This document shows, one piece after another, positions 18,180-26,031 of a stretch of DNA of 64,000 nucleotides; the first letter of the stretch is position 1, and every line of letters begins with the position of its first letter. The notes beneath the pieces were generated by a model. The model was not told the DNA's origin and did not search any database. It saw only the letters and a program-made list of their open reading frames with translations. The translations under genes and the position numbers were made by a program. Source of the stretch: a virus (Duplodnaviria > Heunggongvirae > Uroviricota > Caudoviricetes); the IMG/VR virus record IMGVR_UViG_2737471993_000002, one strand, 5' to 3'.

Positions 18180-21100
18180 ATGTGGTACAGGGAAGGTACT
18201 ATCACATTTACACAGGGCAGCAATACTCTGGTTGGGGCAGGGACAGCCTGGAACGTAACAGCTAATGGTGTGTTGCCGGGGATGATCGTCATTGGCCCCG
18301 ACAATAAGCTGTATGAGATCAAGCGCGTAACCAGTGATACGAACATTGTTCTCTCAGAACCTTATACCGGCGAAACTCAGTCTGAAGTTCCGTGCCGAAT
18401 CATTACGACCTATGAAGGCGACTTAACACAGTTTAGCGCGCGCTTTACAGCACTAATGTCGCGTATGTCGGCTGATTCCAAGTCCATGCGCAGTTGGTTG
18501 ACTGCTCTGGATGAGGTGACAATCGAGCGTGAAGACGGTACAGAAGTGACCGTTAAGCCGCTAATGCAGATCGTCAACGAGCACAACGAAAACGTTGAGT
18601 GGTATAAAAATAACACTGACGCGATTGATGCTGCTGGCGACAAAGCTCGTGAGGCGGCGGCCAGTGCTGCCGCAGCAGCAGAAAGCGCCAATACCGCTGG
18701 AGAAAAAGCCTCTCAAGCGTCTCAAAGTGCATCCGCTGCAGAGTCCTCAAAAAGCGCGGCGGCCACCAGTGCCGGTGCCGCGAAAACGTCTGAAACGAAT
18801 GCTGCAGCGTCACAAAAATCTGCAGCCACTTCTGCATCCACCGCGACCACGAAGGCGTCAGAAGCTGCCACCTCAGCCCGGGATGCGGCGGCCTCAAAAG
18901 AGGCAGCGAAATCATCAGAAACGAGCGCAGCCTCGAGCGCCAGTAATGCCGCTTCCTCGGCAACGGCGGCAGGAAATTCCGCGAAGGCGGCAAAAACGTC
19001 CGAGACGAACGCCAGGTCTTCTGAAACGGCAGCGGGACAGAGCGCCTCGGCTGCGGCAGGCTCAAAAACAGCGGCTGCGTCGTCTGCCAGTGCCGCGTCA
19101 ACAAGTGCCGGGCAGGCCTCAGCCAGTGCCACCGCCGCCGGAAAATCGGCAGAAAGTGCCGCATCGTCTGCTTCAACAGCCACAACGAAGGCTGGCGAAG
19201 CCACTGAACAGGCCAGCGCAGCAGCGAGGTCTGCTTCCGCAGCGAAGACATCCGAAACGAACGCGAAAGCGTCGGAAACCCGTGCAGAATCCTCAAAAAC
19301 GGCAGCCGCATCGTCCGCCAGTTCGGCAGCGTCATCGGCATCATCTGCGTCTGCTTCAAAAGATGAGGCGACCAGACAGGCGTCAGCAGCGAAGGGCAGC
19401 GCCACGACGGCATCCACGAAAGCAACAGAGGCGGCAGGCAGTGCGACGGCAGCATCTCAGAGCAAAACTGCTGCTGAATCCGCTGCGACCCGTGCGGAAG
19501 CTGCTGCTGATCGTGCTGAAGAGATTGCCGGTGCAGTTGCGATGGAAGACGCAAGCCTTACAACTAAAGGTGTTGTGAAACTTAGCAGTGCTGTCGACAG
19601 CACCAGTGAATCGCTGGCCGCAACGCCAAAAGCAGTTAAAGTAGTCAATGACAATGCGAACAGCAGGGTGCCATCTAACCGAAAAATTAACGGGAAAGCA
19701 CTGACTGCGGATATCACATTAACGCCGAAAGATATTGGTACTTTAAATTCAATAACGATGTCTTTCTCTGGCGGGGCCGGGTGGTTCAAACTGGCTACTG
19801 TTACAATGCCACAAGCGAGTTCCATCGTTTACATCGCATTGATTGGTGGCGCTGGTTACAACGTCGGCTCCCCACATCAGGCAGGCATTTCAGAACTGGT
19901 TCTACGAGCAGGCAATGGAAACCCCAAAGGGATTACAGGTGCTTTGTGGAAGCGTACAGCTGTCGGATTAACGAATTTCGCCTGGATCAACACATCCGGC
20001 GATACATATGATATTTACGTTGAGATTGGCAATTATGCGACTCGTGTAAATATCCATTGGGATTGTACTGCAAATGCGACAGTTTCTATTTATACATCGC
20101 CAACATATTCAGCGAGTAAGCCTTCCAGCGTTACCGATGGTGTTGTTTATACGATGTATAGCACACATCAGAAACCGACGCCGTTAGATATTGGAGCACT
20201 GCCAACAACCGGAGGAACAGTTTCAGGTCAGTTGTCTGTTACTGGTGGGATCACCGGAACATTAAATGGTAATGCAAGTACAGCAACGAAATTGCAGACG
20301 GCAAGATCTATCGGTGGAGTTGGTTTCGACGGTTCTGCAAATATCAACCTTCCAGGTGTAAATACTACGGGTAATCAGAACACCACTGGTAATGCTGCAA
20401 CTGCTACAAAACTTCAGACGGCAAGAACTATCGGCGGCGTGAGCTTTGATGGTACTGCGAATATTAATTTGCCAGGTGTTAATACGGCTGGTAATCAGAA
20501 TACAACGGGCAACGCGGCTACTGCTACGAAGTTGCAGACTGCGCGTACTATCAATGGGGTGTCGTTTGACGGCTCGGCAAATATTTCCTTGTCGCCAGCA
20601 AATATAGGTTGCCCGGCATCTCCTACTGGTTGGTTAACTACAGGAAGTAATGGCGGAGCAATAACAACAGCACAGTTAGTGACGTTATTGCAAAATAATG
20701 GAGCATTTAACACAAAGTCATGGATTGCTCGATGTGCGTGGGCCTATGCCAATAGTGCAACCATACCAAATAGTGAAACTGGTTGTGGCGTTATTCCATT
20801 GGCAGGAGCTGTTATAGAGGTATTTAATAACGGTAGTAGCTCAAACAATTATACGATCCGTATAACAACGGCCACAACGACGAGTGTCTCTGGTGCTCTC
20901 ACTAATGCGGAGTTTATCTATGTATTTAATGGCACATATTATTCTCCGGGATGGCGAAGAGTATATAACACGAAAAACAAACCAACAGCCTCTGATGTCG
21001 GTGCATTACCTCTTACCGGTGGTACATTATCTGGAGGTTTGACATCTTCTGGCGAGATCATTTCAAAATATGCAAATGGTTTCCGCATTGCTTACGGTAG

Positions 21101-22208
21101 CTTTGGGTTCTTTATCCGTAATGATGGATCGAACACATATTTCATGCTAACAGCATCAGGAGACACATTAGGTTCATGGAACGGTTTGCGACCAATTACA
21201 ATTAATAATACCAGCGGTGCTGTATCAATTGGTAATGGACTAAATGTGACTGGTGGCGTAAATGGTAGTTTGAACGGTAATGCTTCAACAGCTACGAAGT
21301 TGCAAACAGCGAGAAACATCAATGGTGTTAAGTTTGATGGCTCAGGCGATATCAACATTAATACATTGGTATCTCGTGGCCGAGTTACGGCGTTAAGCGG
21401 CTCTACTCAAGGCACTGCTGGCATTCAAATGTACGAGGCGTACAACAATAGCTACCCGACCACGTATGGCAACGTATTGCACATGAAAGGTGCGAGTGCT
21501 GCTGGTGAGGGCGAGTTGCTTATTGGCTGGAGTGGTACGAGCGGTGCACATGCGCCAGTTTTCATTCGCTCACGAAGAGATACCACAGATGCGGCATGGT
21601 CAGCGTGGGCGCAGGTATATACTGCTAAGGATTCAATCCCTGGTGTGAATACAACCGGTAATCAGAATACTACTGGTAATGCCGCAACAGCCACAAAATT
21701 GCAGACAGCAAGGAAAATTGCTGGTGTGGCGTTTGATGGCTCTGCCGATATTACTTTGACTGCGGCTAACCTTAATGCCTATACGAAAACAGAGGTAACA
21801 AACCTTCTAAGTTCCTATGTGAAGAGCAGTGCTCTTCCAAGTATGACTGTGCGAACTTCCTCTGTTTCAGGTGGGGATATGGGCATGAGTTTGTCCACAT
21901 TCATTAGCCACCTAAAATCAAATGGGGCGTTTAGCAAAAGTTATTGGATTGGCTTTGGCGATGCTATGGGATTCAATGCTGGCAGTATCAACAATATAAC
22001 GGGATTTGGTGCTGTAGAATTAGCAGAATCTATAATCGAAGTTTTTAATCTACCTAACGGTGATTATACAATTCGTTTAACAACGTCACATAAAGCTGAC
22101 TACGGTGGAGTTACAAACGCAATCCTCGTTTATCACTACCGTAGTAATAGAAGTCCGTCAGGTCAATGGCTGAAATTTGCAGGTACTGTTGGGGCAACAA
22201 GTAACTGA
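18180..22208 (+). CDS. tail fibre protein with Ala/Ser-rich repeat region and phage tail-fibre repeats
   Basis: N-terminal third is built of degenerate A/S-rich units (AAKTSETNA.SSE.AA). Downstream are six copies of GN(A)ATATKLQTAR.I.GV.FDGS.(N/D)I.L, the signature of lambdoid side-tail-fibre repeats. Confidence 0.8.
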   Translation: MWYREGTITFTQGSNTLVGAGTAWNVTANGVLPGMIVIGPDNKLYEIKRVTSDTNIVLSEPYTGETQSEVPCRIITTYEGDLTQFSARFTALMSRMSADSKSMRSWLTALDEVTIEREDGTEVTVKPLMQIVNEHNENVEWYKNNTDAIDAAGDKAREAAASAAAAAESANTAGEKASQASQSASAAESSKSAAATSAGAAKTSETNAAASQKSAATSASTATTKASEAATSARDAAASKEAAKSSETSAASSASNAASSATAAGNSAKAAKTSETNARSSETAAGQSASAAAGSKTAAASSASAASTSAGQASASATAAGKSAESAASSASTATTKAGEATEQASAAARSASAAKTSETNAKASETRAESSKTAAASSASSAASSASSASASKDEATRQASAAKGSATTASTKATEAAGSATAASQSKTAAESAATRAEAAADRAEEIAGAVAMEDASLTTKGVVKLSSAVDSTSESLAATPKAVKVVNDNANSRVPSNRKINGKALTADITLTPKDIGTLNSITMSFSGGAGWFKLATVTMPQASSIVYIALIGGAGYNVGSPHQAGISELVLRAGNGNPKGITGALWKRTAVGLTNFAWINTSGDTYDIYVEIGNYATRVNIHWDCTANATVSIYTSPTYSASKPSSVTDGVVYTMYSTHQKPTPLDIGALPTTGGTVSGQLSVTGGITGTLNGNASTATKLQTARSIGGVGFDGSANINLPGVNTTGNQNTTGNAATATKLQTARTIGGVSFDGTANINLPGVNTAGNQNTTGNAATATKLQTARTINGVSFDGSANISLSPANIGCPASPTGWLTTGSNGGAITTAQLVTLLQNNGAFNTKSWIARCAWAYANSATIPNSETGCGVIPLAGAVIEVFNNGSSSNNYTIRITTATTTSVSGALTNAEFIYVFNGTYYSPGWRRVYNTKNKPTASDVGALPLTGGTLSGGLTSSGEIISKYANGFRIAYGSFGFFIRNDGSNTYFMLTASGDTLGSWNGLRPITINNTSGAVSIGNGLNVTGGVNGSLNGNASTATKLQTARNINGVKFDGSGDININTLVSRGRVTALSGSTQGTAGIQMYEAYNNSYPTTYGNVLHMKGASAAGEGELLIGWSGTSGAHAPVFIRSRRDTTDAAWSAWAQVYTAKDSIPGVNTTGNQNTTGNAATATKLQTARKIAGVAFDGSADITLTAANLNAYTKTEVTNLLSSYVKSSALPSMTVRTSSVSGGDMGMSLSTFISHLKSNGAFSKSYWIGFGDAMGFNAGSINNITGFGAVELAESIIEVFNLPNGDYTIRLTTSHKADYGGVTNAILVYHYRSNRSPSGQWLKFAGTVGATSN

Positions 22209-22398
22209 TTTAGACATTATTTATATGGCTGTGAGGTTTAAAATGCGATCTCACAGCCGCAATCATAGGGATATATTAGTGAGTTACTAGATACGAATTT
22301 GAACAGCCGTTAAACGGTATATGCATAGGTAGGTAAGTATATACCTATAATTGAAAGGAGAAGTGTGATATAAATCCGCCATCCCGATTTGACTTTTC

Positions 22399-22734
22399 AT
22401 GGAGGAAAACATGTCGAACGAGATGGCGGGCGTTACAACAGAGCAAGTTGAGCGTATTGCCGCGATCGTTGCTCGGGAGGTTGTTGGCAAATTAGGTAAA
22501 GAGCTACGTGAAGAAATTGGCCAGGAGGTCAATGATCAGCTGAAAACCTACTTTGGTGATATGACCCCGGCGCAACATAGTATTCAACACTCCAATCTGG
22601 ACAAACTCCTTAACCGGTTAGATTCCATCTCAAGTGGGTTCTTTGGCGGCATTGTTTCTAAAATAACGTCGTTCATTATTACCGCACTGCTTTTGGGGTT
22701 AGCCGCGTATGGCGTAAAAAGTGGACTGCAATAA
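22399..22734 (+). CDS. tail-anchored membrane protein, possible holin
   Basis: 111 aa with a single C-terminal TM helix (ITSFIITALLLGLAAYGV); first gene of an operon after the fibre gene. Holin call is positional only. Confidence 0.35.
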   Translation: MEENMSNEMAGVTTEQVERIAAIVAREVVGKLGKELREEIGQEVNDQLKTYFGDMTPAQHSIQHSNLDKLLNRLDSISSGFFGGIVSKITSFIITALLLGLAAYGVKSGLQ

Positions 22735-23440
22735 CAGGAGATCAAGGATGAAGACTCCGAGAGGCATTCGTAATAATAACCCCGGTAATCTTGATAAAGG
22801 ATCACCGTGGCAAGGTCTGGTTGCGAATCCAGACGAACCGCGCTTTTGCACGTTTAAAGACCCTGTTTGGGGGATTCGTGCGCTGGCGGTGACTCTAATT
22901 ACCTACCACGACAAACGTCGCGCAAAAGACGGCTCAAGTATCGATACCATTCGTGAAGTTATTGAACGTTGGGCACCGCCGAATGAAAACAACACTGACG
23001 CCTACATTAATGAGGTGTCTAAAGCCGTTGGTGTAACCGCAGACATGATCATCGATCTGCATGATTACGACATCCTTCGACCTTTGGTTGAGGCAATCAT
23101 TCGCCACGAGAATGGTCGAGGTCCACTAAAAACGCTGAACACCTGGTATGCGGCAGAAGTTATTGAGGAAGGTCTGCGTCGAGCTGGCGTCGTTAAGCCG
23201 GTGAAAACCGTGAAGGCTGTTCCTGTAACTAAAGAAACCGCTGGCGCAACTGTTACAGCAGGTATTGGTCTGGCGCAGCTGGCCGATGTTATGCCGCAGG
23301 TTTCCGCTGCTATGGATAAAGCACAAGGTCATATCTCTAGCGGGGATACAGTACGCATCATCTTCGGTATTGCCACTATTGTTGTGGCTGGATTTATCGC
23401 CTGGTCGCAGGTAAGAAGACACCAGAAAGGGATGGTCTAA
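22721..23440 (+). CDS. putative cell-wall hydrolase (endolysin-like) with C-terminal membrane anchor
   Basis: 239 aa with GIRNNNPGNL near the N-terminus and a C-terminal TM helix. Placed in a lysis-like cassette by position; enzymatic class not established. Confidence 0.35.
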   Translation: MDCNNRRSRMKTPRGIRNNNPGNLDKGSPWQGLVANPDEPRFCTFKDPVWGIRALAVTLITYHDKRRAKDGSSIDTIREVIERWAPPNENNTDAYINEVSKAVGVTADMIIDLHDYDILRPLVEAIIRHENGRGPLKTLNTWYAAEVIEEGLRRAGVVKPVKTVKAVPVTKETAGATVTAGIGLAQLADVMPQVSAAMDKAQGHISSGDTVRIIFGIATIVVAGFIAWSQVRRHQKGMV

Positions 23441-23441
23441 T

Positions 23442-23693
23442 ATGCTAGGCAGCCTGATGACAAAGCTAAAAGTTGCTTTGATTACGCTGGCTGCCGTTCT
23501 TTTCGTTCTTGTCGGCGCTTACACGATGGGCGGAAATGCGGCGCGACGAGCAATGGAAGAGAAGGCAAAACAGGAAGACAGAAAACGACTTCAAAGCACA
23601 GTGGATGTCAAAAATGAAACGGTTAATGAAGTGCGGCAAAAAGATGCCTCTGGTGTTCATCGCGAGCTGCTTGATAAATGGGTGCGTGATTAA
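23442..23693 (+). CDS. putative i-spanin (Rz-like)
   Basis: 83 aa, N-terminal TM helix followed by a charged, helical periplasmic region. Confidence 0.4.
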   Translation: MLGSLMTKLKVALITLAAVLFVLVGAYTMGGNAARRAMEEKAKQEDRKRLQSTVDVKNETVNEVRQKDASGVHRELLDKWVRD

Positions 23694-23841
23694 GACGCAG
23701 GCTCCAGGCGTGCTATTCTGCGATGCTGCAAATCCTATCTATGTGAGTAGAGAGGATTTTATGACTGAGGAAACGGAGCGACAGTTGCTTATCCACAATA
23801 CGATAGGTGAAAGGCTGTGTGAGTGGGGGCACCTGAACTGA
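23614..23841 (+). CDS. putative o-spanin (Rz1-like lipoprotein) in an overlapping frame
   Basis: +1-frame ORF overlapping the Rz-like gene; internal start MKRLMKCGKKMPLVFIASC gives a lipobox-like IASC, followed by a Pro-containing segment. Start codon uncertain. Confidence 0.3.
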   Translation: MKRLMKCGKKMPLVFIASCLINGCVIKTQAPGVLFCDAANPIYVSREDFMTEETERQLLIHNTIGERLCEWGHLN

Positions 23842-24065
23842 GGCGATGATTGATGAGTGGTCTCAGTTTACCTTTTATCCTAAAGATGGCATCTTCACTC
23901 ATATACACGCCTGTTCACTCAAGCTCATGTTGAATCATTTAGTAATTTGATGTAGATTTATTAGGCATCCACGTAAGTGGGCACATACAGGCTACGCATC
24001 CTCGTAGCCTTCAACCCCGAGAGGGGTGCCGCAATGACACTTGTGTTAACGGCTAAGGTGGACAC

Positions 24066-24449
24066 ATGCTGAACGAGAAACGTTCTATACAAACTATTCG
24101 CGATTGCACGAGTATTATCGAGACTCATGTGCTGAATCAGCACAAGCTTGAAGTACGTAAGCTCAATAATGACGCTATTGAACCGGAAGACTCACGCTTC
24201 ATCGTTACCTTCAAAGACGATGTTGAGCGCGCTGGTGCAAGCGTGAAGCCATTAGCTGAAGCAATTTACCTGAATGGTCGTGTTCGTTTTGTAGTCAAGC
24301 CAGCTAAACAGTACCCTGAGCTGTCTCGTTTTATCGAGGCTTTTTCGGAGGTTATTGAACATTCTATTCGCCGCTTCTTACGCAATCATGGTAGCATTGT
24401 CAGCACGGTTAAGGCTGATGATTCTGCTACAAAATGGCTCCTACACTAG
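24066..24449 (+). CDS. hypothetical protein
   Basis: 127-aa ORF after a ~220-nt intergenic region; no recognisable motif. Confidence 0.45.
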   Translation: MLNEKRSIQTIRDCTSIIETHVLNQHKLEVRKLNNDAIEPEDSRFIVTFKDDVERAGASVKPLAEAIYLNGRVRFVVKPAKQYPELSRFIEAFSEVIEHSIRRFLRNHGSIVSTVKADDSATKWLLH

Positions 24450-25186
24450 ATAGCGCATATTCAAAAGATCTAAGCGAGTTTCCTCATAAAGGGGAGACTC
24501 GTGTTGTTCGTTTTGGCTTTCTTATCAATGAAGCCTCCCTCTATAAAATCTCAGAAATTGAAATCATTGAACCAGAAGATGACATTTGCCTGTATGTCTC
24601 TATGGAACGTGTAGGTGCGCGCAACCAAGGCGACCTGAGCGAATTCATCTTAGATCGAGCGGATGAAGATGCCCCTGAAGAAGAGATTATCAAAGAGGTG
24701 CTCCAGTCCGGGCTTCTGGACGAAAACAAAAATACGATCGCTGGTAGGATAGCTCTGCGTGAATATAGTTTTGTTGAAGACGGTAATGAGATCGAATGTT
24801 ACCAGGTAGCTGGTGTCGAAACTGTCAGAGAGCGTCGTCAGCGAGGATTGTGTCACCGTACCTATCTCTTTCTTCTTCATTGGTATGAGCATTTAGTCTG
24901 CGACGATACACAAACCATTCCTGGTGCTAAGATCTGGGCAGGGCCTCTCATGCGAACCGGCGATGTGCGTATATACAATGCCAAAACAGAAACGTTCGAA
25001 GATGTGTTAGGTGAGTACGGGATGGGGAAAGAAACCGGATTTTTGCCGTGGAACAGAGGATTGTTGCTTGATGCAGAGTTAAGCTCTTGGCTCCCAAACA
25101 AAGTGCAAGTTAACGTTCAGAAATTTATCGTACTTATCATCTCCCGCAAAACAAGAACTCCAGTAGGTTTATACCTAAAAGATTAA
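24434..25186 (+). CDS. hypothetical protein
   Basis: 250-aa ORF overlapping the previous stop; followed by an intrinsic terminator. Confidence 0.5.
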   Translation: MAPTLDSAYSKDLSEFPHKGETRVVRFGFLINEASLYKISEIEIIEPEDDICLYVSMERVGARNQGDLSEFILDRADEDAPEEEIIKEVLQSGLLDENKNTIAGRIALREYSFVEDGNEIECYQVAGVETVRERRQRGLCHRTYLFLLHWYEHLVCDDTQTIPGAKIWAGPLMRTGDVRIYNAKTETFEDVLGEYGMGKETGFLPWNRGLLLDAELSSWLPNKVQVNVQKFIVLIISRKTRTPVGLYLKD

Positions 25187-25362: not shown

Positions 25363-26031
25363 ATGACCAAGATCTTTGTGGTTGGCGGCACAAAGGGCGG
25401 GCCTGGCAAATCCACCGTTGCCCAGCAAATTGCCGTTTGCCTGAAAGTCAAAAAGAAGAAGAAGGTTTATATTACCGATATAGATATTCAGCGCACGACA
25501 ACGAGCTGGTGTGAAGACCGTCGACAGAACGAAGACCTTGAGCTGATTCCTTTTGCATACGTTCAGGATGACATCATTAAGCACCTAAAATCGCTTCAGG
25601 GTAGAGCTGAGTTTGTAGTGGTAGATGCTGGTGGCTTCGACTCCGAAATTCAGCGACAAGCGATGCTGATGGCTGACGTTATCATTATCCCGCTGCGTCC
25701 TAAGCGTCGTGATTTGAAATCTTTACGTGACATCGATCCTATTATCGACAATGTTCGCAATGTAAACGATAAAGTGAAGGTCCGCGCGGTCATGAACCAG
25801 TGCCCGGCTTTGCCATCACAAGTGTCTCGCATTCTGGCGGCTAAAGAGATTGTTGAGACGTTTGGCATCGAGTCTGCGCCAGTCAATCTATATAACCGCA
25901 ACGTCTATGATGATGCGGAAGAGTCTGGTCGTTCTATCTTTGAAATGACCGGTAGCGAGCGCGACAAAAAGGCGGAAGCCGAGTTTGAAGAATTTGTAGA
26001 TTATCTGTTGAGTCTGGAGGAAGAAGAATAA
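25363..26031 (+). CDS. parA: ParA-family partition ATPase
   Basis: N-terminal deviant Walker A (VVGGTKGGPGKST), 222 aa, followed by a small overlapping partner gene. Confidence 0.8.
   Translation: MTKIFVVGGTKGGPGKSTVAQQIAVCLKVKKKKKVYITDIDIQRTTTSWCEDRRQNEDLELIPFAYVQDDIIKHLKSLQGRAEFVVVDAGGFDSEIQRQAMLMADVIIIPLRPKRRDLKSLRDIDPIIDNVRNVNDKVKVRAVMNQCPALPSQVSRILAAKEIVETFGIESAPVNLYNRNVYDDAEESGRSIFEMTGSERDKKAEAEFEEFVDYLLSLEEEE

Follow-up and report, generated by a model that had tools for sequence, protein, structure and literature searches.

A predicted late lysis cassette lies at positions 22,399 to 23,841 on the plus strand of a 64,000-nucleotide (nt) stretch of DNA from the IMG/VR virus record IMGVR_UViG_2737471993_000002, the whole of which is called the window here. 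We put at roughly 0.95 the probability that this region is the lysis cassette of an SSU5-like phage-plasmid, its identity as a cassette, the Enc34/M4Lys class of its endolysin and its pair of spanins being taken jointly. The source element of the window is an SSU5-like phage-plasmid, the DNA of the region being 94% identical to that of Escherichia phage Cyrano and 83% identical to that of Salmonella phage SSU5, and both relatives annotate the four genes of the cassette as holin, endolysin, Rz and Rz1. A preliminary description of the region, made from its letters, had proposed a lysis-like cassette of atypical composition; the annotation of the relatives bears out the lysis assignment, and the reading frames of all four genes are present at the positions that it gave. 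The genes are closely packed, with a 13-nt gap between genes 1 and 2, a 1-nt gap between genes 2 and 3 and an overlap between genes 3 and 4, and their main features are the following.

22411–22734, plus strand: gene 1, a tail-anchored small membrane protein of 107 amino acids (aa), phrog_5093; its open reading frame (ORF) opens at ATG 22399.
22549–22590, plus strand: the conserved, predicted cytoplasmic motif of gene 1, YFGDMTPAQHSIQH, in which G49, H56 and H60 are invariant.
22651–22707, plus strand: the C-terminal transmembrane (TM) segment of gene 1, residues 81–99, with a Kyte–Doolittle 19-residue mean of 2.02 and 8 residues after it.
22748–23440, plus strand: gene 2, a predicted Enc34/M4Lys-type endolysin of 230 aa, with a PHA02564-type catalytic domain, a conserved linker and a C-terminal membrane region.
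22748–23197, plus strand: the catalytic domain of gene 2, residues 1–150, with W75 at 22970–22972, Y86 at 23003–23005 and the catalytic E121 at 23108–23110.
23219–23317, plus strand: the linker VPVTKET and a weakly hydrophobic Gly/Ala-rich helix of gene 2, residues 158–190, with a Kyte–Doolittle maximum of 1.11 (residues 164–182).
23345–23437, plus strand: the distal TM helix of gene 2, residues 204–222, and the basic tail RRHQKGMV; Kyte–Doolittle mean 2.07.
23442–23693, plus strand: gene 3, a predicted i-spanin of 83 aa, with an N-terminal TM segment at residues 11–29 (23472–23528) and a 54-residue periplasmic part ending KWVRD.
23605–23841, plus strand: gene 4, a predicted o-spanin and outer-membrane lipoprotein candidate in the +1 frame of gene 3, starting at ATG 23605, 23614, 23626 or 23644.
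23668–23670 and 23683–23685, plus strand: the candidate lipobox cysteines of gene 4 (IAS-C and ING-C, respectively).

Each of the four products matches a family profile in PHROGs (phrog_5093 at 2e-68, phrog_873 at 5e-88, phrog_1026 at 4e-25 and phrog_1275 at 3e-25 for genes 1 to 4, respectively), and the genes are therefore not chance ORFs; Pfam and NCBIfam searches with the same four products returned sub-threshold noise only. Conservation of the block extends to 393 plasmid records and to more than 200 loci from viruses and metagenomes, and the cassette DNA is 100% identical in several Escherichia coli plasmids of about 110 kilobases (kb). The cassettes of SSU5 and Cyrano have the same four genes in the same order and with the same spacing, nothing essential differing from the window, whereas the flanks vary: SSU5 carries Cor and membrane protein genes upstream, and Cyrano a KacT toxin–antitoxin pair downstream. 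The complete-genome annotation of Cyrano contains no lysis genes besides this cassette and, as far as that annotation shows, no unrelated lysis cassette stands elsewhere in the genome.

The enzyme at the core of the cassette is the product of gene 2. Besides its match to phrog_873 ('endolysin'), the protein aligns over residues 3–151 with the Enc34 endolysin's catalytic domain (Protein Data Bank entry 7Q47_A; phmmer E = 2.6e-54, 58–59% identity). An AlphaFold2 (AF2) model built with 34 homologues has block-mean predicted local distance difference test (pLDDT) values of 81–97 over residues 21–150, and the top Foldseek match of this model is again 7Q47 (E = 4e-16, target TM-score 0.84, 59% identity). 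In the phmmer alignment to 7Q47, W75, Y86 and E121 correspond to Trp79, Tyr95 and Glu131 of Enc34, and all three residues are invariant in the 34 homologues. Enc34 represents the endolysin family PHA02564, in which Glu131 is catalytic and Trp79 and Tyr95 are also important, and its catalytic domain showed muralytic activity against E. coli, Pseudomonas and Hafnia cells that had been permeabilised (PMC8943055). Along 99% of its length, gene 2 is also about 55% identical to the endolysins of SPN19 and FSL SP-088, members of the Chi-like group that includes M4Lys; M4Lys itself is 97–99% identical to these two proteins and has N-acetylglucosaminidase activity by liquid chromatography–mass spectrometry (LC-MS) (PMC7143992). 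The preliminary description had regarded the enzymatic class of the putative lysin as not established. Given the 58–59% identity to the Enc34 domain, the conserved catalytic residues and the identity of about 55% to the M4Lys group, that class is settled by homology, and gene 2 is predicted to encode a lysozyme-like glycosidase with an all-helical domain and a catalytic Glu.

The protein with the motif GIRNNNPGNL had been presented as 239 aa long, the length of the mechanical ORF that opens at GTG 22721. The frame is there, and the product is likely to be the shorter one of 230 aa, starting at ATG 22748: an AGGAG stands at 22736–22740, and the protein then begins MKTPRGIRNNNPGNL, as annotated in relatives. 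From this start the N-terminus, MKTPRGIRNNNPGNLDKGSPWQG, is hydrophilic and holds no N-terminal signal-arrest-release (SAR) signal-anchor, the only hydrophobic segments of the protein being C-terminal. Its classification as a SAR endolysin was ruled out by this hydrophilic N-terminus and by the C-terminal anchor.

It had further been pointed out that gene 1 and the lysin each end in a single TM helix, a composition thought unusual for a holin–endolysin pair. Kyte–Doolittle hydropathy, from which the TM segments of all cassette proteins were read, does give each protein a single strong C-terminal segment (2.02 and 2.07). The anchor of the lysin is thus real, yet it is not atypical: a C-terminal TM domain, first noted in the endolysin of phage Siskin (PMC6498227), is what defines the Enc34/M4Lys/Siskin type of endolysin, which has already been described (PMC8943055, PMC7143992, PMC6498227). 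The membrane region of gene 2 aligns residue for residue with that of the Chi-like proteins through the weak helix, which is borderline for TMHMM-type tools, the strong TM helix and the tail.

In the 34 homologues (55–89% overall identity), this C-terminal region is as conserved as the enzyme part. P159, T161, E163, A167, G174, Q177, P183 and A188 show no variation, and there is little or none in S198 or in the TM helix and its basic tail, which follows the pattern (K/R)(K/R)(H/Y)Q. Such conservation of the non-catalytic part suggests specific interactions rather than a passive anchor. AF2 confidence is low there (residues 161–198 have pLDDT below 50), and the model gives no indication either way of a hairpin between the two C-terminal helices. 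The VPVTKET linker (23219–23239, residues 158–164) is itself almost invariant in the homologues, which is unexpected for a mere spacer, and it could be a processing or interaction site.

Genes 3 and 4 complete the cassette. Gene 3 starts 1 nt after the stop codon of gene 2, and its product matches the Rz-like spanin family phrog_1026, in which PHROGs groups the SSU5 i-spanin with other spanins of similarly small size. The N-terminal TM segment noticed earlier in this 83-aa protein is clear by hydropathy (residues 11–29, Kyte–Doolittle mean 2.38), and the protein aligns with the i-spanins of Chi-like phages, with a conserved C-terminal (K/D)W(V/M)R motif. Gene 4 matches phrog_1275, another Rz-like spanin family, and shares conserved cysteines with Chi-like and other relatives. 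Its most likely start is ATG 23605 or 23614, not the TTG at 23509 listed for the ORF; from either, gene 4 overlaps gene 3 by 80–89 nt and extends 148 nt past the gene 3 stop. The preliminary description had read this pair as an overlapped Rz/Rz1-type arrangement, and the +1 frame, the overlap, the two spanin family matches and the listing of the SSU5 pair in a spanin census all agree with that reading. By these similarities, genes 3 and 4 are predicted to form a two-component spanin of overlapped architecture, with an o-spanin of the Chi family. The census itself lists the SSU5 i-spanin as a singleton of the overlapped class and places the SSU5 o-spanin in the Chi family with Enc34 (Kongari et al. 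2018, PMC6139136). The arrangement also resembles the overlapped spanins of P2 LysB/LysC type, in which an i-spanin with an N-terminal TM segment is paired with a +1-frame o-spanin that starts inside it, extends beyond it and carries a lipobox, a candidate one in the window, and conserved cysteines, although the window has an i-spanin of very small size (83 aa, of which about 54 residues are periplasmic).

Gene 4 has a signal of lipoprotein type, in which two cysteines are candidates for lipidation. Read by motif and alignment, the first follows a canonical lipobox (IAS-C) and the second, five residues downstream, a sequence with Asn at position −2 (ING-C), the +2 residue being Leu or Val. The second cysteine, Cys27 of the 78-aa form, is probably the lipidated one because it aligns with the only canonical lipobox of the relatives (VSG-C, ISG-C and LIG-C). 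As a side observation, the annotated coding sequence (CDS) of Rz1 in Cyrano (5511–5630 of locus L001) begins at an internal GTG downstream of a signal peptide and lipobox encoded in the +1 frame, and is probably too short. The RefSeq plasmid records go further in this direction: the cassette is labelled 'membrane protein' and, twice, 'hypothetical protein', with just three CDS and the o-spanin missing (for example NZ_CP031294.1), so that in SSU5-like plasmids the Enc34/M4Lys-type endolysin appears as a 'hypothetical protein' and the o-spanin is usually omitted.

Gene 1 is the member of the cassette whose function is least constrained by homology to described proteins. The ORF opens at ATG 22399, where the gene had been placed, whereas its likely start is ATG 22411, giving 107 aa, because a Shine–Dalgarno sequence (GGAGG, 22401–22405) lies 5 nt before this codon, the phrog_5093 profile covers residues 5–111 of the 111-aa ORF (2e-68), and the relatives in Cyrano and SSU5 are annotated from the corresponding Met. 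A dual start of the lambda S kind (Met1/Met5 of the 111-aa ORF) was considered and rejected: the upstream ATG is conserved but lies inside the Shine–Dalgarno sequence of the second and has no ribosome-binding site of its own. The protein, 99% identical to that of Cyrano and 95% to that of SSU5, has a single strong hydrophobic segment at its extreme C-terminus, preceded by 80 hydrophilic residues and followed by 8 residues with one Lys; residues 1–75 contain 8 Lys/Arg against 12 Asp/Glu. It has no family in Pfam or NCBIfam, and in PHROGs matches phrog_5093 alone, a family of 'unknown function'. An AF2 run with 8 sequences gave no confident model (mean pLDDT 47) and was used for its all-helical secondary structure only. 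The 'holin' label attached to its relatives rests on position only.

Gene 1 nevertheless belongs to a wider family. At E ≤ 0.001 an exhaustive profile search matched 63 clusters, and 14 of these also passed E ≤ 1e-10; relatives were retrieved for 30 of the 63 (94–143 aa), of which 29 were aligned, at 23–55% identity to the window protein. All but one of the 30 share a common layout of amphipathic acidic helices, motif and C-terminal hydrophobic segment, the exception seeming to be truncated C-terminally. The family motif is (Y/H)FG(D/E)M-x-P-x-x-H-x-x-Q-H-x-R-(L/I)-x-x-(L/F)-L, and the only invariant columns of the 29-sequence alignment are G49, H56 and H60, that is, a Gly and a His-x3-His. 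All 29 aligned relatives match phrog_5093, and a Pfam scan of these family members found no Pfam family. Among deposited phages, gene 1 is restricted to 12 SSU5-like records; a word-indexed protein search returned only relatives of at least 59% identity, tblastn with two distant relatives recovered the same 12 phage records only, and scans for relatives found one locus in genome contigs and almost exclusively SSU5-like contigs in metagenomes. Across more than 200 loci, the spacing between gene 1 and the endolysin gene is constant, with 15–17 nt between BLAST matches.

The distant relatives occur in about ten independent contigs that are not SSU5-like. In five high-GC contigs and one alphaproteobacterial metagenome-assembled genome (MAG), the gene 1 homologue is followed by a three-TM protein, an endolysin with a hydrophobic N-terminus, an i-spanin and a lipoprotein. 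The three-TM protein is common to five contigs and matches phrog_8226, 'holin', in the one case scanned; in the contigs scanned, the endolysin matches phrog_669, 'endolysin', and the i-spanin an Rz-like spanin family. Four other contigs have, in this order, the gene 1 homologue, a Peptidase_M15_3 endolysin and a small membrane protein that has one hydrophobic segment or two, followed by Rz-like spanins in the three that extend far enough. In the remaining arrangement, that of contig L092, a two-TM protein follows the gene 1 homologue and no endolysin was recognised within 4 kb downstream. A separate small membrane protein, in which one to three segments are hydrophobic, is thus present in every one of these non-SSU5 cassettes, whereas the SSU5-type cassette lacks a separate gene of that kind and its endolysin carries a membrane domain of its own. 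Because its homologues head cassettes with different endolysin types in these contigs, phrog_5093 is best described, from gene neighbourhoods, as a putative lysis-cassette gene that travels with three unrelated endolysin types.

In four contigs from uncultivated viruses or MAGs (L089, L091, L117 and L245; 106–215 kb, 61–64% GC), a lysis cassette begins with a gene 1 homologue. These contigs are mostly SSU5-like in size, and a PhoH-like gene lies a short way downstream in three of them, L089, L117 and L245 (by a Pfam hit in L245 and by sequence similarity in the other two). They may be SSU5-like phage-plasmids of other Proteobacteria.

We hold it quite probable that gene 1 is a lysis protein. 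What it does is a more delicate matter. Our tentative preference, to which we give slightly less than an even chance, is that gene 1 acts as an accessory partner in the control of lysis rather than as the sole holin. The endolysin would accumulate at the inner membrane late in infection, held there by its own C-terminal region, and that region would make, or share in, the lesion in the membrane that lets the catalytic domain reach the wall. Gene 1, an acidic helical cytoplasmic domain with an invariant His-x3-His tethered by its C-terminus, would set or trigger the time of release, resembling an antiholin or a releasin rather than a sole hole-former; the glycosidase would then cut the wall, after which the spanin complex would disrupt the outer membrane. 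The topology of gene 1 and of the endolysin, the crossing or bypassing of the membrane by the catalytic domain and a contact between gene 1 and the endolysin tail are the steps of this scheme that we infer.

A part for the endolysin region in the lesion is proposed because, in experiments with M4Lys, that region was required for lysis without any holin: the full-length protein lyses E. coli alone, in an azide-insensitive manner, its C-terminal TM domain is needed and removal of the last 13 residues abolishes lysis (PMC7143992). An accessory role for gene 1 is preferred on four grounds. Every distant cassette holds another small membrane protein, whereas the SSU5-type cassette has none and its endolysin carries a holin-like membrane domain; gene 1 has neither the charged C-terminal tail of the known holin classes nor their topology; its best-conserved feature is the cytoplasmic His motif and not the membrane segment; and there is a precedent in the releasin gp25 of phage Mu. 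This 'releasin' is a 99-aa acidic cytoplasmic protein with one TM segment that is needed to release a membrane-anchored endolysin, and the dependence on it maps to basic residues in the short cytoplasmic tail of that endolysin (PMC9239132).

The likeness between Mu gp25 and gene 1 extends to several features. Both are proteins of about 100 aa, consisting mostly of an acidic cytoplasmic domain with two histidines, one TM segment and almost no periplasmic part; both lie in a lysis cassette with a membrane-anchored endolysin that bears a short basic cytoplasmic tail; and each family occurs with several endolysin classes. The orientation differs. The anchor of gp25 is N-terminal (N-out, C-in) and that of gene 1 C-terminal, the anchors of the two endolysins are likewise mirrored, and the gp25 gene lies downstream of its endolysin gene whereas gene 1 lies upstream. 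The resemblance to the Mu releasin pair is one of layout only, gene 1 and the Enc34-type endolysin seeming to form its mirror image. Taken to its full extent, the analogy would make phrog_5093 an unrecognised tail-anchored family of lysis-control proteins acting on membrane-embedded effectors, with SSU5-like elements having no canonical holin, the membrane domain of the endolysin making the lesion and gene 1 timing it through the basic tail, a mirror of the pair formed by the Mu releasin and its SAR endolysin; we regard this more general proposal as rather doubtful.

Several points weigh against an accessory role for gene 1 and against the scheme built around it. The first position, directly upstream of the endolysin, is the classic position of a holin, and a holin may need no more than one TM segment, the T protein of T4 being an example. 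Gene 1 has no sequence relation to Mu gp25 or DUF2730 (no match at E ≤ 1 for gene 1, nor at E ≤ 0.01 for its 29 relatives). We know of no route by which a large N-terminal domain with a C-terminal anchor is exported. The topologies of gene 1 and of the endolysin are predicted from hydropathy and charge only, and AF2 gave no confident model of either gene 1 (pLDDT 47) or the C-terminal region of the endolysin. The members of phrog_5093 and the lysis genes of SSU5 type are known from sequence alone, and the sample of distant contexts, about ten contigs, is small. M4Lys lysed cells without a holin when it was strongly overexpressed, which may not be what happens in infection (PMC8943055). The gene upstream of M4Lys is dispensable and slightly delays lysis (PMC7143992), a result that is not directly transferable because that gene is unrelated to gene 1.

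The proteins encoded upstream of Enc34-type endolysins are in fact unrelated from one lineage to the next: the Chi-like one has an N-terminal TM segment, where gene 1 has a C-terminal one, that of an Alcaligenaceae prophage is another tail-anchored protein, and that of a Pasteurella prophage has no strong hydrophobic segment. Profile–profile comparison of the gene 1 family with the Chi-type upstream protein gave a probability of about 1%, and the same value was obtained for the 99-aa tail-anchored Alcaligenaceae protein; neither comparison showed a relation, and the idea of a shared His-x3-His was dropped.

The strongest alternative is that gene 1 is a holin of a new tail-anchored, single-TM class, the C-terminus of the endolysin being a mere tether at the cytoplasmic face, so that holes or depolarisation caused by gene 1 would give access to the wall and the spanins would finish lysis. 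We consider this possible, at odds of about one in three. Gene 1 is small, has one strong TM segment, stands 13 nt upstream of the endolysin gene with a spacing that holds in more than 200 loci and is the only other membrane protein of the SSU5-type cassette. Like holins, the family turns up in shuffled combinations with three unrelated endolysin types, and the pairing of Enc34-type endolysins with at least three unrelated small upstream proteins points to a generic and not a partner-specific function; a pinholin-like partner was indeed speculated on by the Enc34 authors (PMC8943055). Against this stand the other small membrane protein in every non-SSU5 cassette with a gene 1 homologue (a three-TM protein in five contigs), the location of the strongest conservation in the cytoplasmic motif with its invariant histidines and not in the TM segment, and the lack of any match of gene 1 to holin families in Pfam, PHROGs and NCBIfam. 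After its TM segment gene 1 has just 8 residues carrying one charge, where holins typically have a C-terminal tail that is hydrophilic and highly charged, and its layout fits none of the topologies of the holin classes (three TM segments, two, or one with a large periplasmic C-terminal domain). M4Lys, moreover, lyses cells without a holin (PMC7143992).

The class III holin T of T4 has a single TM segment, like gene 1, but combines a short cytoplasmic N-terminus with a large periplasmic C-terminal domain, the opposite of the gene 1 layout, and gene 1 has no similarity to holin families. The systems of SAR endolysins and pinholins (phage 21, P1 Lyz) share with the window a membrane-tethered endolysin and a Gly/Ala-rich weak helix, and with M4Lys holin-independent lysis on overexpression. 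The SAR domain, however, is N-terminal and exported by Sec, whereas the anchor of the window endolysin is C-terminal and lysis by M4Lys is azide-insensitive (PMC7143992).

An improbable alternative is that gene 1 is not a lysis gene at all but a lysogeny or accessory membrane protein, concerned for instance with superinfection exclusion or the tail fibre, that happens to lie between the tail fibre gene and the lysis genes. The stretch between tail fibre and gene 1 in SSU5 does hold genes for membrane, Cor and outer-membrane proteins, PHROGs assigns phrog_5093 no function, and L092 has no recognised endolysin within reach. Yet the linkage of gene 1 to the endolysin gene is tight and constant whatever lies upstream, nine of the approximately ten informative distant contexts have an endolysin of a different type within two genes downstream and spanins after it, and gene 1 has a strong Shine–Dalgarno sequence and the same orientation as the lysis genes. 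Least probable by far is that the 230-aa product of gene 2 is not an endolysin but a virion-associated enzyme that cuts the wall for DNA entry: the same catalytic domain does occur inside tape-measure, internal-virion and core proteins (phrog_2276, phrog_7182, Gp29 of PDB 9VVP and the Kayfunavirus internal virion protein D) and the conserved-domain name of PHA02564 is 'virion protein', but gene 2 is free-standing, membrane-anchored and set between a small membrane-protein gene and the spanin genes, its full-length homologues lyse from within (PMC7143992), and the Cyrano annotation has no other endolysin.

For the window itself these results change little, as a cassette of this kind is usual in the lineage and its phage relatives already carry the annotation. 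The cassette was known before this analysis, having been annotated in SSU5 (2012) and in Cyrano; the biochemistry and structure of its endolysin type have been characterised, and its spanins are on record. The residual novelty is modest: the Enc34-type endolysin is spread far more widely than the two experimental papers assumed, and the 'holin' of SSU5-like elements belongs to a wider, unnamed tail-anchored family. The Enc34/M4Lys type has been regarded as confined to Chi-like phages and close relatives (PMC8943055, PMC7143992), virulent flagellotropic siphoviruses of about 60 kb. The window, by contrast, comes from a temperate phage-plasmid of 100–110 kb, and it shares with that type the catalytic domain with its Glu, Trp and Tyr, the linker, the weak helix, the strong TM helix and the basic tail. 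SSU5-like phage-plasmids, very common in Enterobacteriaceae (the 393 plasmid records), have an endolysin of this type too, and outside Enterobacteriaceae it is found in prophages of Pasteurella and Alcaligenaceae. In these last two groups, Pasteurella multocida (L241 and L242) and Alcaligenaceae (L243 and L244), Enc34-type endolysins with the full C-terminal membrane region lie in chromosomal prophage-like regions, each with an unrelated small protein before it and, after it, a short i-spanin whose C-terminal end reads (D/E)W(M/N)R. As for gene 1, its 'holin' label has no support beyond position, while the family to which it belongs heads cassettes of three endolysin types. Cyrano, an inducible and tractable phage-plasmid in E. 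coli LF82, would be a convenient system in which to ask how a C-terminally anchored endolysin reaches the wall.

The surroundings of the cassette offered a few minor observations. A scan of 22000–24300 for promoters and terminators found no more sites than in shuffled sequence. Three inverted repeats flank the cassette, none of them followed by a T-run: one at 22227–22258, just past the stop codon of the tail fibre gene (9-base-pair (bp) perfect stem, 14-nt loop), one at 22316–22345, about 65 nt upstream of gene 1 (a 12-nt imperfect palindrome), and one at 23989–24010, 150 nt past the o-spanin stop codon (8-bp perfect stem).

Downstream, two genes of unknown function with a 16-nt overlap, encoding proteins of 127 aa (phrog_2594) and 250 aa (phrog_3307), occupy 24066–25186 and fill a variable slot between the lysis cassette and parA (25363–26031). 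The same slot holds the KacT-type toxin–antitoxin pair in Cyrano, two other hypothetical genes in SSU5 and yet another pair in locus L015; it looks to be a hot spot where accessory cargo is exchanged, possibly genes for defence or addiction. Upstream, the tail fibre gene (18180–22208) encodes a protein of 1342 aa, P1 S-like according to the Cyrano annotation, with a long Ala/Ser-rich N-terminal part, and contains about 2.5 copies of a 120-nt unit at 20279–20585 that encodes a recurring NQNTTGNAATATKLQTAR motif.

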